A DNA stretch of 64,000 nt from the NCBI GenBank assembly GCA_951406725.2, contig OX597820.1:5642001-5706000 (forward strand), read 5' to 3'. The first letter of the stretch is position 1; each line of letters opens with the position of its first letter. The notes under the pieces are model-generated. The model did no database searches. It saw only the letters and a program-made list of their open reading frames with translations, and had not been told where the DNA came from. The position numbers and the translations under genes are program-made. Source of the DNA: Octopus vulgaris (taxonomy: Eukaryota). This document shows, one piece after another, positions 16,494 to 54,960 of the stretch.

Positions 16494-17221
16494 AATGAAC
16501 TTACTGTCTCTCCCTCCCTCTCTCTTATTCTTCATTCTTTCTGGTTTTCTCTACAACCATTCCTCTTTTTTCTCTCCCCTTCCCTTTCTCTTACTCCTCC
16601 TCCCCTGTCCCGTCGCTGGTCAGCGATGAGGAAACTAATGTCTTTTCTGACCTTGCTTCACTCGAGTGTAGACGGCAATTTCTGTGGCTCCTTCGCCGTT
16701 CTCAAAAATAGCGTTCCTAATATTTTATCTCGTTCGGCTTAACACCCCTTCTTATCTGTGTTACTGTTATTCTCCTTGTCCTGTCTTTTACTGTTTATAT
16801 TTTGTACTGTCGTTACTGTCCTGTTTTTGTTACCATTTTTACCCCTCCGCAAAAAATCTCAAATTTTATTTAATTTGCTTTTCGCGGGAAGGAATGTTTC
16901 AGTCGAAGACGCGTCTCGCCTTCACCTTCGAAACGCGGAGTAGATGAAACCATGGCGACTGAAGAAGGGGAATTTTCCTTGTGTTATTTGTCCTGTACTC
17001 TATTTTTTCGTTGTTTAAGAAAAAAGTCCATTTCCTTGGTTTTGTGTTTATGTTTTCGTTTCTTATTGTGTTCGACGTTTTTTGGTGTCCTGTACCCATA
17101 TATGCGTGTATGTATACATGTAGAGGTAGGTACGTACATATATGTATATATATATGCATATGTTTTATTTATTAATTTGTTATTATACGACAGAACGCAC
17201 GCATCCATTTCTAAGTAAGTT

Positions 17222-19569: not shown

Positions 19570-19985
19570 AGGCGGTGAGCTGGCAGAGTCGTTAGCACGC
19601 CGGGCGAAATGCTTAGCCGTATTTCGTCTGCTGTTACATTCTGAGTTCAAATTCCACCGGGTCGACTTTAACTTTCATTCTTTCGGGGTTGATAAACTAA
19701 GTACCAGTTACGCACTGGGGTCGATGTAATCGACTTAATCCGTTTGTCTGTCCTTGTTTGTCCCCTCTGTGTTTAGCCCCTTGTGGGTAGTAAAGAAATA
19801 GGTGTTTCGTCTGCCGCTACGTTCTGAGTTCAAATTCCGCGGAGATCGACTTTGCCTTTCATCCCTTCGGGGTCGATTAAATAAGTACCAGTTACGCACG
19901 GGGGTTGATATAATCGACTTAATCCGTTTGTTTGTTCTTGTTTGTCCCCTCTGTGTGTAGCCCCTTGTGGGCAGTATAGAAATAA
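19570..19985 (+). mobile_element. Nin/Deu-domain tRNA SINE (family N), head plus duplicated body
   Basis: GGCGGTGAGCTGGCAGAGTCGTTAG..GAGTTCAAATTCC..TTTCATCCCTTCGGGGTCGATTAAATAAGTACCAG..CCCCTTGTGGG twice. Confidence 0.85.
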
Positions 19986-23755: not shown

Positions 23756-23794
<39 letters not shown>

Positions 23795-23797
<3 letters not shown>

Positions 23798-24060
23798 CAA
23801 AATGGGACAAGAACGCAAAAGATACAAATAGACGATACAAAAAACACGGAGGGGCCTTCGAAGCCTCTAATCTTCAGTCAAGAACCGGATCATCCTCGCA
23901 ATTTCGGCTGATTAATCTTGAAATTGCTCCAATCTGGCCAGTCCCAAGGAATAACTAAGCTACGAGCATTAGATTTCTTGGAAAAAAGCTTCGAATGTAT
24001 ACGAAACAAGGACAGAAAAACGGACGATGTTTCACGAATATAAATACAAAAAACCCCCAA
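23795..24060 (-). mobile_element. Ribozyme-bearing repeat family H, dispersed copy
   Basis: Reverse complement of 51405-51665; homologous to part of the 769-bp unit. Confidence 0.8.
23862..23928 (-). ncRNA. Non-circularly permuted hammerhead motif (family H)
   Basis: Minus strand: GCAAU-U-UCAAGA / UUAAUC / AGCC-GAAA-UUGC / GAGGAUGAUCCGGU / UCUUGA-CUGAAGA-UUAGA-GGCU. Confidence 0.65.
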
Positions 24061-34344: not shown

Positions 34345-34561
34345 CAATATGTGACCTCGTGAGTACCGCTGGCGATTTTTTTCCTCTGTCTTCCCTTCTC
34401 TGGATCTTTCCTTCTACTATGTTTCTGACGAAGAGCTCCGCTCGAAACGTTAAACCCTCCTTCTTCCCTTCTTTCCTGAGCGTCCAATAATACTATATTT
34501 GTTGCACGTCCTTGTGTTGTTGTGTTTTTTTTTTTTTTTTTGTGTTTTCTTGTTTGGATTA

Positions 34562-47267: not shown

Positions 47268-48394
47268 AACAACAAAACAACAACAGCAGCAACAACAACA
47301 ATAATATAGAGGTGACATAACCGTGAGCATGCCGACAAAATGCTTAGCGACAGTTCTTGCTTAACTTACAGAATTCAAATTCCACCCGGAGTCGTCTTTG
47401 CATTTCGCCCTTTCGGCGGTAAATATTTTGACACCGGAATCGTGGGGCAGAGAGGATCCGTTTCAACGTCCAAGATGAAGACGGCTGGGTTAAACTGAAC
47501 GATGGATTATCTCTACTGGAAAGCCGGAGCGCCGATGAGCTCACTCACACACACATAGTTTAGTTCGTCGAAATCGCACATAAAAGACTTTGGTCGACCC
47601 GAGTTTATGAACGAAAATCTTGCTCAATGTGCTACGCTTGTGATTGGTTACCAATCTTCTAATCAACACGACTACACTTGCTGTACAAGACCTTATTTTT
47701 ACTTCGATTTCCTTGCACCTTGTAACCTTTGTATTTTAATCCAAAGATTTGTAATCCGAAAGAAAAGAAAATATCTGCTTGTCACAGATTATGACATCTC
47801 TGTAATGGTTCTGATCTTGTTGTCAGTATGTAGAAGCATGAAACCAGACCATCAGAATCTTGTGTCTGTCACAAGCAACGTACTATAATCCTTTCTCCCT
47901 CTCATGTGTGGTGATTAACGGCTTTATATCACTTGGTGACAGTTTGGTTTTATACGGAAGTGTCGGCGTATAGCAGAATTCACAGTGCTACTTAAAAAAA
48001 CGACCCAGGGGTGACTGCTGCATGGAATAACAATACTAAAGCGGTTGCTGTTATACTGATGTAATAAATCACTGTTAAACAATCATGCATTTTACTGTTC
48101 TGCCTGTTTGCTATCACCCGCCTAGTTAGTCGTTTAACTTATGGTGTCACTCAGTAATCTGTCTCTCTCTTTGTCTCTGTCTCTGTCGGTTTCTCTCTCT
48201 CTCTCTCGTCTCTCCGAAATCTGTAGTAATAATTACAACTCACACACTCACACACATACACGCATTCATACATGTTCAGAGGGATATAGATATATAGACA
48301 GAGAGATAGAGAGGGTTTCTTTTTTTATCACCACCATTTACACCAACACCAACATTCCCACACTCTCGCCATGTCTGACCTCCACTCCTTCCTC

Positions 48395-48750
<356 letters not shown>

Positions 48751-48759
48751 ATATATATA

Positions 48760-51316
48760 TATATGTAAAGAGTAAAAATAATTACAGACATGGACAAGAA
48801 CATGAAACACCAAAGAGACGACACAAGAACCACAGGACGGGACATTCGAAGCCCTCAGTAATCAGTCAAGAACCAGATCATCTTAGCAATTTCGGCTGAT
48901 TAATCTTGAGATTGCTCCGATTTGGGCAGCCCGCCAAGGGAAATCTAAGCCAAGCGCATTAGATCCCCTGGAAGAAAGCTTCGAATGTATACAACACGAG
49001 GACGGAAAACGAACGAAGTACACAAACAAAAATACAGAATACGTGACACCAATAAGAATACAAAAACGTAAAAACAATAACGGTAAAAATAAAAAACAAA
49101 ACAAAACCAGGACGTAGGACAAGGGTCTTTCGACAGGACGAGTTGAGTTTAGGGCTGGCTTATGAAGTAGTGCCTAATGGCCGCAGGGAGACGAACAAAT
49201 ACGTGTTGCTTCGGCGACTGCTGGAACGAAAAGGGCGCTTAGCAGTGGCTAGCGGTCACGTGAGAACAAAAGACAGGAGAAAGGGACAGATGAAAAGAGA
49301 GAGAAGGTGGACGAGGGAGGAGAAGAAAGAGACAGATCGAGGGGACTGGAGGTGAGAGAGATAGAGAAACGTAGAAGGGGGGGGAAGACGGATGGAGAGG
49401 GAAAGAAAGGAAGGGGAATAAGGGAGGAGAGAGAGAGAGAGAAAGAGACAGATCAAGAGTCGTATCAATGCTAGAGAAAAAATATACTTATCGTATAAGG
49501 ACAATTGTGGATACGTAGCCGCCGATTATATATGTAAAGAGTAAAAATAATTACAGACATGGACAAGAACATGAAACACCAAAGAGACGACACAAGAACC
49601 ACAGGACGGGACATTCGAAGCCCTCAGTCATCAGTCAAGAACCAGATCATCTTAGCAATTTCGGCTGATTAATCTTGAGATTGCTCCGATTTGGGCAGCC
49701 CGCCAAGGGAAATCTAAGCCAAGCGCATTAGATCCCCTGGAAGAAAGCTTCGAATGTATACAACACGAGGACGGAAAACGAACGAAGTACACAAACAAAA
49801 ATACAGAATACGTGACACCAATAAGAATACAAAAACGTAAAAACAATAACGGTAAAAATAAAAAACAAAACAAAACCAGGACGTAGGACAAGGGTCTTTC
49901 GACAGGACGAGTTGAGTTTAGGGCTGGCTTATGAAGTAGTGCCTAATGGCCGCAGGGAGACGAACAAATACCTGTTGCTTCGGCGACTGCTGGAACGAAA
50001 AGGGCGCTTAGCAGTGGCTAGCGGTCACGTGAGAACAAAAGACAGGAGAAAGGGACAGATGAAAAGAGAGAGAAGGTGGACGAGGGAGGAGAAGAAAGAG
50101 ACAGATCGAGGGGACTGGAGGTGAGAGAGATAGAGAAACGTAGAAGGGGGGAAAGACGGATGGAGAGGGAAAGAAAGGAAGGGGAATAAGGGAGGAGAGA
50201 GAGAGAGAGAAAGAGACAGATCAAGAGTCGTATCAATGCTAGAGAAAAAATATACTTATCGTATAAGGACAATTGTGGATACGTAGCCGCCGATTATATA
50301 TGTAAAGAGTAAAAATAATTACAGACATGGACAAGAACATGAAACACCAAAGAGACGACACAAGAACCACAGGACGGGACATTCGAAGCCCTCAGTCATC
50401 AGTCAAGAACCAGATCATCTTAGCAATTTCGGCTGATTAATCTTGAGATTGCTCCGATTTGGGCAGCCCGCCAAGGGAAATCTAAGCCAAGCGCATTAGA
50501 TCCCCTGGAAGAAAGCTTCGAATGTATACAACACGAGGACGGAAAACGAACGAAGTACACAAACAAAAATACAGAATACGTGACACCAATAAGAATACAA
50601 AAACGTAAAAACAATAACGGTAAAAATAAAAAACAAAACAAAACCAGGACGTAGGACAAGGGTCTTTCGACAGGACGAGTTGAGTTTAGGGCTGGCTTAT
50701 GAAGTAGTGCCTAATGGCCGCAGGGAGACGAACAAATACGTGTTGCTTCGGCGACTGCTGGAACGAAAAGGGCGCTTAGCAGTGGCTAGCGGTCACGTGA
50801 GAACAAAAGACAGGAGAAAGGGACAGATGAAAAGAGAGAGAAGGTGGACGAGGGAGGAGAAGAAAGAGACAGATCGAGGGGACTGGAGGTGAGAGAGATA
50901 GAGAAACGTAGAAGGGGGGGGAAAGACGGATGGAGAGGGAAAGAAAGGAAGGGGAATAAGGGAGGAGAGAGAGAGAGAGAAAGAGACAGATCAAGAGTCG
51001 TATCAATGCTAGAGAAAAAATATACTTATCGTATAAGGACAATTGTGGATACGTAGCCGCCGATTATATATGTAAACAGTAAAAATAATTACAGACATGG
51101 ACAAGAACATGAAACACCAAAGAGACGACACAAGAACCGCAGGACGGGACATTCGAAGCCCTCAGTCATCAGTCAAGAACCAGATCATCTTAGCAATTTC
51201 GGCTGATTAATCTTGAGATTACTCCGATTTGGGCAGCCCGCCAAGGGAAATCTAAGCCAAGCGCATTAGATCCCCTGGAAGAAAGCTTCGAATGTATACA
51301 ACACGATGACGGAAAA

Positions 51317-51319
<3 letters not shown>
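48760..51319 (-). repeat. Tandem array of ~769-bp units (3.3 copies), each carrying a family H permuted hammerhead
   Basis: Unit starts near 48760, 49529, 50297 and 51067; periods 769/768/770 from G-run length; a few SNPs; bounded by (TA)n. Confidence 0.95.
49619..49685 (-). ncRNA. Non-circularly permuted hammerhead (family H); also at 48850-48916 (core mutant), 50387-50453 and 51157-51223
   Basis: Minus strand: AGCAAU-C-UCAAGA / UUAAUC / AGCC-GAAA-UUGCU / AAGAUGAUCUGGU / UCUUGA-CUGAUGA-CUGAG-GGCU. Confidence 0.7.
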
Positions 51320-51406: not shown

Positions 51407-51665
51407 TGTTTTTTTTGTATTTATATTCGTGTAACATCGTCCGTTTTTCTGTCCTTGTTTCGTACACATTCGATCCTTTTTCCGAGGAATTTAATACTCT
51501 TAGCTTAGTTTTTCCTTGGGGCTGGCCAGATTGGAGCAATCTCAATATTAATCAGCCGAAATTGCGAGGATGATCCGGTTCTTGACTGAAGATTAAAGGC
51601 TTCGAATGACCCGTCCGTGTTTTTTGTATCGTCTATTTGGATGTTTTGCGTTCTTGTCCCAATTT
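51405..51665 (+). mobile_element. Family H dispersed copy, inverted relative to the array; permuted hammerhead at 51535-51601
   Basis: AGCAAT-C-TCAATA..AGCC-GAAA-TTGC..TCTTGA-CTGAAGA-TTAAA-GGCT; same subtype as 23795-24060. Confidence 0.8.
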
Positions 51666-54048: not shown

Positions 54049-54960
54049 AGGTGGTGAGCTAACAGAAACGTTACCACGCCGGGCGAAATGCATAGCGGTA
54101 TTTCGTCTGCCGCTACGTTCTGAGTTAAAATTCCGCCGAGGTCGACTTTGCCTTTCATCCTTTCGGGGTCGATAAATTAAGTACCAGTTACGCACTGGAG
54201 TCGATGTAATCGACTTAATCCGTTTGTCTGTCCTTGTTTGTCCCCTCTGTGTTTAGCCCCTTGTGGGTAGTAAAGAAATAGGTATTTCTTCTGCCGCTAC
54301 GTTCGGAGTTCAAATTCCGCCGAGGTCGACTTTGCCTTTCATCCTTTCGGGGTCGATAAATTAAGTACCAGCTACGCACTGGAGTCGATGTAATCGACTT
54401 AATCCGTTTGTCTGTCCTTGTTTGTCCCCTCTGTGTTTAGCCCCTTGTGGGTAATAAAGAAATAGGTATTTCTTCTGCCGCTACGTTCTGAGTTCAAATT
54501 CCGCCGAGGTCGACTTTGCCTTTCATCCTTTCGGGGTCGATTAAATAAGTACCAGTTACGCACTGGGGTCGATATAATCGACTTAATCCGCTTGTCTGTC
54601 CTTGTTTGTCCTCTCTGTGTTTAGCCCCTTGTGGGTAGTAAAGAAATAGGTATTTCGTCAGCCGCTACGTTCTGAGGTCGACTTTGCCTTTCATTCTTTC
54701 GGGGTCGATTAAATAAGTACCAGTTACGCACTGGGGTCGATATAATCGACTTAATCCATTTGTCTGGCCTTGTTTGTCCTCTGTGTTTAGCCCCTTGTGG
54801 GTAGTAGAGAAATAGATGTTTACGTTCTGGGTTCGAATTCCGCCGAGGTCAACTTTGTCTTTCATCCTTTCGAGGTCGATAAATAAAGTACCAGTTACTT
54901 ACTTGGGTCGATGTGATCAATTTATCCCCTTCCTCGAAACTGTGCGAAAATATGAAACCA
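54049..54960 (+). mobile_element. SINE family N head followed by about five tandem ~184-bp body units
   Basis: GCCGCTACGTTC recurs near 54109, 54293, 54477 and 54661; fifth diverged unit from ~54820. Confidence 0.9.

Follow-up and report, generated by a model that had tools for sequence, protein, structure and literature searches.

A 64,000-nucleotide window of the Octopus vulgaris genome (the whole stretch of DNA analysed here, contig OX597820.1, positions 5,642,001 to 5,706,000) contains several copies of a repeat, family H, whose RNA had been proposed from the letters alone to carry a hammerhead with its blocks in a non-circularly permuted order. The locus raises the question of whether this motif is indeed a hammerhead, which strands form its stem II, whether the RNA cuts itself, and how the repeat is copied.

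All six family H copies that had been placed in the window, near 23862, 48850, 49619, 50387, 51157 and 51535, are present on the strands assigned to them. Since the four copies from 48850 to 51157 belong to a single tandem insertion, the window contains three insertions, not six. The elements discussed below are:

48759..51319, minus strand: family H insertion of subfamily S1, 3.3 head-to-tail units of 768-770 nt each, non-coding
49612..49756, minus strand: whole putative ribozyme domain of the copy studied here, from the 5' strand to the 3' strand of helix X
48843..48987, minus strand: same domain in the last unit of the array, with G8 mutated (CUGAUUA)
50380..50524, minus strand: same domain, intact copy
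51150..51294, minus strand: same domain in the first unit of the array, with a U-G wobble in stem III
51413..51659, plus strand: older family H copy (S3) truncated at its 5' end, oriented head-to-head with the array and with a mismatch in stem I
23790..24054, minus strand: older, 5'-truncated family H copy (S3), with H17=U and a stem II mismatch
16842..16970, plus strand: family B copy with the same six-helix layout

The S1 array is flanked by (TA)n tracts; its 3' end lies in the tract at 48648-48764 and its 5' end is truncated at 51319. No notable open frame was found in the 768-nt unit, and a coding role was rejected, the frames upstream of copies being simple repeats or unrelated LINE/PLE pieces. 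The core mutation reported for the 48850 copy (CUGAUUA) and the stem I mismatch of the 51535 copy are both real. In the 51157 copy, a C-to-U wobble in stem III had been missed, and H17=U at 23862, previously taken as the mark of a subtype, seems to be a private change, with C at this position in most S3 copies.

We then examined the hammerhead core, using the standard hammerhead numbering of positions (A9, G10.1, C17 and so on). In the host genome (2.8 Gb, rich in microsatellites), the main form gave 2,292 exact pattern matches, and a further 1,226 came from forms that differ in a stem I base and mostly belong to one older subfamily; no match appeared in the reversed-pattern controls for either. 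The family H core thus has at least 3,500 exact matches in the genome. A descriptor returned 87 matches in 1.04 Mb of copy-enriched sequence, and none in the reversed sequence or in three shuffled copies. The elements CUGANGA, GAAA and UH are present in family H, one of the six window copies being mutated, and among the exact-pattern matches N7 may be U, A, G or C while the remaining core is fixed. A hammerhead-type motif in the order S-G-C is therefore borne out in family H copies, in place of the circular order C-G-S of types I-III. A canonical type I reading using a downstream GAAU was ruled out, as this sequence is neither GAAA nor conserved. Non-circularly permuted hammerheads of type SGC (and CSG), with HRIMA-1, are described from metatranscriptomes only in the accessible text of Eckert et al. 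2023 (PMC10085705); as the order S-G-C is published as type SGC, the order alone is not new.

Subfamilies S1-S5 were sorted from 150 loci, S6 was found as a bystander and S7 through a loose end in contigs. When subfamily consensus sequences were compared, 11 of 11 core columns were invariant against 77 of 145 other columns, a difference that is partly built in because S5 and S6 had been found with core-containing patterns. S7 (790 matches, in arrays of up to six units) was located by a 16-mer outside the core, and its core was intact in all five distinct copies read. Core conservation at the copy level (0 mismatches in 528) was discarded as evidence, the rows having been chosen by their core, and 400 kb of unselected genome contained a single H copy, too few for an unbiased core test. 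An Rfam search of region 49480-49900 gave no hammerhead match at E values up to 10, and the 150 of 306 matches listed for the whole window were microsatellite noise. A further H subfamily was seen as a single copy (L204:2860-3010, minus strand), with a 6-bp stem III and a different but still paired stem I. Half or more of the words of the young S1 unit were also observed in sequencing runs from six organisms (X15-X20), which suggests that S1 is common to relatives.

The stems gave a less simple result. Stem I (UCAAGA:UCUUGA) and stem III (GCAAU:AUUGC) were confirmed as previously drawn, and both covary. Stem II had been read as GGCU:AGCC, with GGCU placed after an atypical 5-nt insertion behind the core, that is, as a plain type SGC. 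Four pairs are possible for this stem in S1-S3 and S7, and 77% of its 196 cells are paired, more than in shuffles. However, in S4/S5 the GGCU reads A-A-C-U while AGCC is unchanged, so that the G10.1-C11.1 pair is lost uncompensated in a form with about 1,200 matches; at the consensus level two of the four pairs fail in S4/S5 and one of the four, a C-C mismatch, in S6. The strand is moreover buried in a 14-bp helix (X), whose partner strand in S1 lies 120 nt upstream, and the mean pair probability of the proposed stem was 0.0 in six of six folded copies. The true partner of CAGCC is an invariant GGCUG just upstream of block S; in S6 the two strands read GGGCA:UGCCC. When copies were anchored on S, G and C only, 56 of 78 H copies had a full 5-bp stem II upstream and one of 78 had it downstream. 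We regard the downstream stem as very unlikely. Neither GGCU:AGCC as stem II nor the 5-nt insertion stood up, the 5' strand of stem II being upstream of the cleavage site.

Covariation was counted on 49 of the 79 full-length extracts (the first eight each of S1-S3 and all true S4-S6). With stem II taken upstream, 96.6% of the 784 cells of the three stems were paired, and 93.5% of those of stem II. Both sides had changed in 102 cells, whereas shuffles gave 32 such cells and slid controls no more than 22; a cell is not equivalent to an independent event. The consensus sequences show three compensatory pairs in stem II, three in stem III and two in stem I, and further compensatory changes occur in S7 and in one additional copy. 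The covariation amounts to few independent events, and for stem II it is essentially one H-to-S6 step. Comparison across families, aligned by structure and not by sequence, yielded five distinct stem II sequences (H, S6, B1, B3 and Naiad), all Watson-Crick and all with G10.1-C11.1. Stems I, II and III, including G10.1-C11.1 and A15.1-U16.1, are thus present with covariation support, provided that the 5' strand of stem II is upstream. As the partner of CAGCC lies upstream, we infer that block C is interrupted between A9 and G10.1 by an inserted helix and hairpin. The parts of the domain in the copy studied are as follows:

49743..49756, minus strand: helix X, 5' strand, pairing with 49612-49625 (14 bp)
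49703..49740, minus strand: hairpin Y, between helix X and stem II
49696..49700, minus strand: stem II, 5' strand GGCUG (its first G is G10.1), pairing with 49663-49667; three family-level compensatory pairs
49688..49694, minus strand: helix P4, 5' strand (bridging stems I and II), pairing with 49642-49648
49685..49687, minus strand: predicted kink-turn, non-bulged strand (G-G-A)
49673..49684, minus strand: block S, with the stem III 3' strand, U16.1 (49680), C17 (49679), the predicted cut and the stem I 3' strand (49678-49673, directly after the cut)
49655..49667, minus strand: block G, with the stem II 3' strand CAGCC, GAAA and the stem III 5' strand
49649..49654, minus strand: predicted kink-turn, bulged strand (3-nt bulge, then G, A, U)
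49628..49640, minus strand: first half of block C, with the stem I 5' strand and the CUGAUGA core
49612..49625, minus strand: helix X, 3' strand, containing the former "insert" and "stem II" (GGCU)

From 5' to 3', the order is therefore X strand, hairpin Y, stem II 5' strand, P4 strand, GA, block S, a 4-nt linker, block G, a 3-nt bulge with GA, P4 strand, stem I 5' strand, CUGANGA and X strand. On this sequence the cut between 49679 and 49678 keeps its predicted position. Hairpin Y abuts G10.1 and helix X begins 0-2 nt after A9, so that X and Y would form a four-way junction at A9/G10.1. In S1 the distal 6 bp of helix X are present in the MFE structure with a pair probability of 1.0; in single copies of S3, S5 and S6 the helix is weak (0.0-0.01). 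The sequence of hairpin Y differs in S5, S6, B1, B3 and Naiad. P4 links the far ends of stems I and II, with one A-C mismatch in S1-S3.

The segment that had been described as a linker hairpin is broken in many copies (AGA-UGA-UCC), and a kink-turn followed by P4 fits it better. In a kink-turn, two helices flank a 3-nt bulge and the tandem G-A/A-G pairs that follow it (accessible part of PMC5435971). This pattern was found in 65 of 72 H copies, 9 of 11 S6 copies and the one Naiad copy, with variable bulge letters, and its letters were unconstrained by any search pattern; S7 has a plain bulge (pattern in neither of two copies). The kink-turn is predicted to link stem III to the helix bridging stems I and II.

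The same pairings could also be formed between neighbouring tandem units or two molecules, and be active only there: the next unit would supply the 5' strand of stem II and the P4 strand, giving a plain type SGC with a 700-nt insertion closed by helix X. The one-unit fold closes all three inter-block linkers, which is topologically demanding, tandems are common in family H, and the accessible text of PMC7761336 and PMC7229834 reports dimeric action for Penelope and amphibian hammerheads. However, a kink-turn should require P4 and stem III strands that are continuous on both sides, a situation found only within one unit, and the Octopus Naiad consensus, in the part of it available, has just one motif copy. 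We consider assembly from two units, including the supply of both strands by the next unit, to be unlikely, and we retain the one-unit fold.

How far does this fold correspond to type SGC? As far as the accessible text of PMC10085705 allows comparison, both share the cyclic order S-G-C, the full core and a helix that connects stems I and II at their far ends, P4 being the counterpart of the type SGC "I" helix. Family H has the order S, G, CUGANGA, a short stem I-II linker (4 nt, against typically 3 in type SGC) and the bridging helix. In contrast to type SGC, the 5' strand of its stem II is upstream of block S, A9 is separated from G10.1 by X and Y, a kink-turn is predicted, and the motif occurs thousands of times in the genome of an animal. 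The uninterrupted block C of type SGC, with stem II 0-2 nt from CUGANGA, is lacking in H and ambiguous in family B; because its block C is interrupted, family H is not type SGC as defined. A distance problem noted for SGC in the same text (Eckert et al., PMC10085705) would be eased by a kink bringing P4 back. What is new in family H is the split block C, together with the genomic retroelement setting.

Family B had been described as sharing the topology of H with no sequence similarity to it, and this holds. That the two families are unrelated and the topology has recurred in them is doubtful, since H, B and Naiad have six helices in identical order. Common descent would fit this shared order at least as well as recurrence. 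In family B stem II reads GAAGG:CCUUC (B1) or GAGCA:UGCUC (B3), with matching changes in X, Y and P4, and the kink-turn pattern is reversed in orientation (9 of 14 copies). The strand after A9 can also pair with the stem II 3' strand through G-U, with at least four of five pairs in 16 of 16 copies, and no more than 4 of the 11 anchored B3 copies have a perfect upstream stem II. Family B could thus also adopt plain SGC, with one inserted nucleotide and two G-U pairs.

The Naiad elements were compared with the same layout. Inspected by eye, the available ends of the Naiad_Obim and Naiad_Ovul consensus sequences place stem II (GACACC:GGUGUC) upstream and also contain stem I, stem III, P4, Y and the kink-turn pattern. 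The Naiad layout has 293 matches in this genome, which contains sequence near-identical to the published Octopus Naiad ends; among four loci read, the whole layout was visible in the one that was long enough. The accessible text of PMC8557442 reports no canonical hammerhead in Naiads, flags Naiad_Ovul as "HHR_half_core" and describes cephalopod Naiads as long inactive. Nematode and spider "half-core" Naiads were set aside, their available ends appearing by eye to be type I-like with a long stem II and not of the split layout. The available squid Naiad_Esco end shows S-G-C with stems I, III and P4 and a poor stem II.

We next analyzed the ends of the insertions. Among 25 S1 insertions, 24 share the same 3' end base, 23 being directly in (TA)n. 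Their 5' ends are scattered, and 10 of the 25 are longer than one unit, in a query that left out single copies cut near the predicted site. A fixed 3' end, 5' truncation, partial tandems and a (TA)n target are hallmarks of non-autonomous Penelope-like elements. For the 5' junctions we collected copies with a TA tract at most 28 nt upstream of the stem I-II linker. At the 491 minus-strand loci (one row per locus among the matches listed), C17 was absent in 393, whose ends fall on seven positions, and kept in 98, whose ends fall on 22. This corresponds to 56 ends per position at +1 to +7 and 4.5 upstream, about 12-fold, in a count that covers +1 to +7 and 22 upstream positions and is affected by more filler-letter slack downstream, by TA ambiguity and by mutated C17. 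In the first 19 loci inspected by eye, seven began at +1, four at +3, three at +4, three at +6/7 and two upstream.

The accumulation of 5' ends at the predicted cut suggests that the RNA cuts itself, and we read it as reverse transcription running off an RNA end that cleavage would have made. A similar picture might arise from a conserved RNA structure without catalytic activity, such as a recognition element of the reverse transcriptase, through polymerase stops or A/T microhomology with (TA)n, and several junctions (+3, +4, +6/7) are indeed ambiguous with TA letters. Yet all core nucleotides are present with the free N7 of a hammerhead, the step is at the predicted bond with 7 of 19 loci beginning at +1, and the partners of block S lie downstream and should already be unwound when the polymerase arrives. 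Such a structure appears quite improbable, and family H RNA probably cleaves itself after C17 (49679). A single contig, from a run guessed to be RNA, ends 4 nt from the site and was not counted as evidence. Short duplications starting at the predicted cut were seen at three loci (G000:C5:29960780-29960829, C2:203059898-203059947 and L097), as if the polymerase had re-primed after reaching the RNA end. Head-to-head inverted pairs of truncated H copies occur at L010, L046, L070, L098 and L103, several breaking within the ribozyme; such pairs are described for Penelope insertions in the accessible text of PMC8557442.

Which element could mobilise family H? The genome contains a young Penelope-like family, present in many identical copies, whose frames exceed 1,000 codons. 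Two loci (L223 and L224; G000:C24:11417900-11422400 and C4:99378800-99383300) hold a young intact element with a frame of about 1,000 codons, RT, a C-terminal GIY-YIG and a minimal type I hammerhead beginning with UUGAAGA, not CUGA; one has a (TA)n flank. We call it "Neptune-like" from its domain order. An H copy is joined directly to the 3' end of this element, with no TA tract between them (L011:1433-1830), by a template switch or by insertion into its tail. No 3' tail shared between H and either autonomous element was seen by eye. As far as the accessible part of Craig et al. 2021 (PMC8557442) goes, family H resembles Naiad/Neptune in (TA)n targeting, 5' truncation, partial tandems and inverted neighbours, and Octopus Naiad 3' ends have its ribozyme layout; it differs in encoding no protein, and the motif of the Neptune-like element is instead a minimal type I. 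The family H motif probably derives from a Naiad 3' end, and the Neptune-like element may be, by a small margin, the likelier present mobiliser. Since cephalopod Naiads are reported as long inactive, the motif would more probably have come from Naiad, while Neptune would more probably drive copying today.

Family H also has the non-coding tandem units, with one hammerhead apiece, of metazoan non-LTR retrozymes, for which cleavage, circularisation and copying by Penelope-like elements are proposed (accessible parts of PMC7229834, PMC7761336 and bioRxiv 10.64898/2026.07.22.740005). In the first two of these texts, retrozymes have type I hammerheads in mostly 150-400-nt units; families in the preprint span 51-972 bp. 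By contrast, family H has 750-850-nt units and no type I hammerhead, and its ribozyme is permuted and split. Type I descriptors cannot match it, because of this permutation and split.

We consider it likely, from these sequence comparisons, that family H is a Penelope-mobilised family with a split, one-unit hammerhead, probably cleaving after C17. Its units, non-coding and 750-850 nt long, would probably be copied by a Penelope-like retrotransposon, and their RNA presents the stem II 5' strand, S, G and CUGANGA in this order. A9 and G10.1, which would not be neighbours in the chain, would be held together by the X/Y four-way junction; the kink-turn would bend stem III, letting P4 fold back within one unit and connect stem I with stem II. 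Cleavage after C17 (49679) would turn read-through or tandem transcripts into unit-length RNA whose 5' end is the cut. Reverse transcription would be primed in the (TA)n target, run off this end and leave copies starting at the cut. Copies passing the site would need a ligated circle, an uncut multimer or template jumps; a circle or multimer would let reverse transcription continue past the cut and give copies of 1.2-6 units. With more reserve, we lean towards a broader reading, in which an undescribed four-block hammerhead is used by the Penelope-like elements of cephalopods and by the non-coding derivatives of these elements. It would be non-circularly permuted, closed by a kink-turn and active in vivo, and a four-way junction would replace the link between CUGANGA and stem II.

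Non-circular permutation of an RNA was previously known from environmental RNAs only, and the three hammerhead blocks were assumed to be unbreakable. If correct, our reading would provide a case in an animal genome, with thousands of copies, that breaks this assumption by means of two general building blocks, a four-way junction and a kink-turn. It would explain the apparent lack of ribozymes in Octopus Naiads, revise for Octopus the statement that Naiads lack canonical hammerheads, and imply a class of genomic ribozymes unseen by all current descriptors. In the literature accessible to us, most subscription papers lying outside it, we found no permuted hammerheads in animal genomes, no split block C and no Octopus Naiad ribozymes. 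The family H layout is itself a descriptor for re-scanning other genomes, and 5' ends accumulating at a cut would be a genomic footprint of cleavage, which bears on the role of hammerheads for Penelope elements.

Two other repeats were noticed in the window. The 3' ends of an abundant repeat, at 48300-48640 and 34360-34560 (both plus strand), carry a minimal type I hammerhead (CUGACGA-A-stem II-GAAAC), a form typical of Penelope-like elements; the copy at 48300-48640 and the H array are arranged tail-to-tail, with a single (TA)n tract between them. A 184-bp tandem repeat of an unrelated family occupies 19622-19984 (2.0 units) and 54097-54918 (4.6 units).
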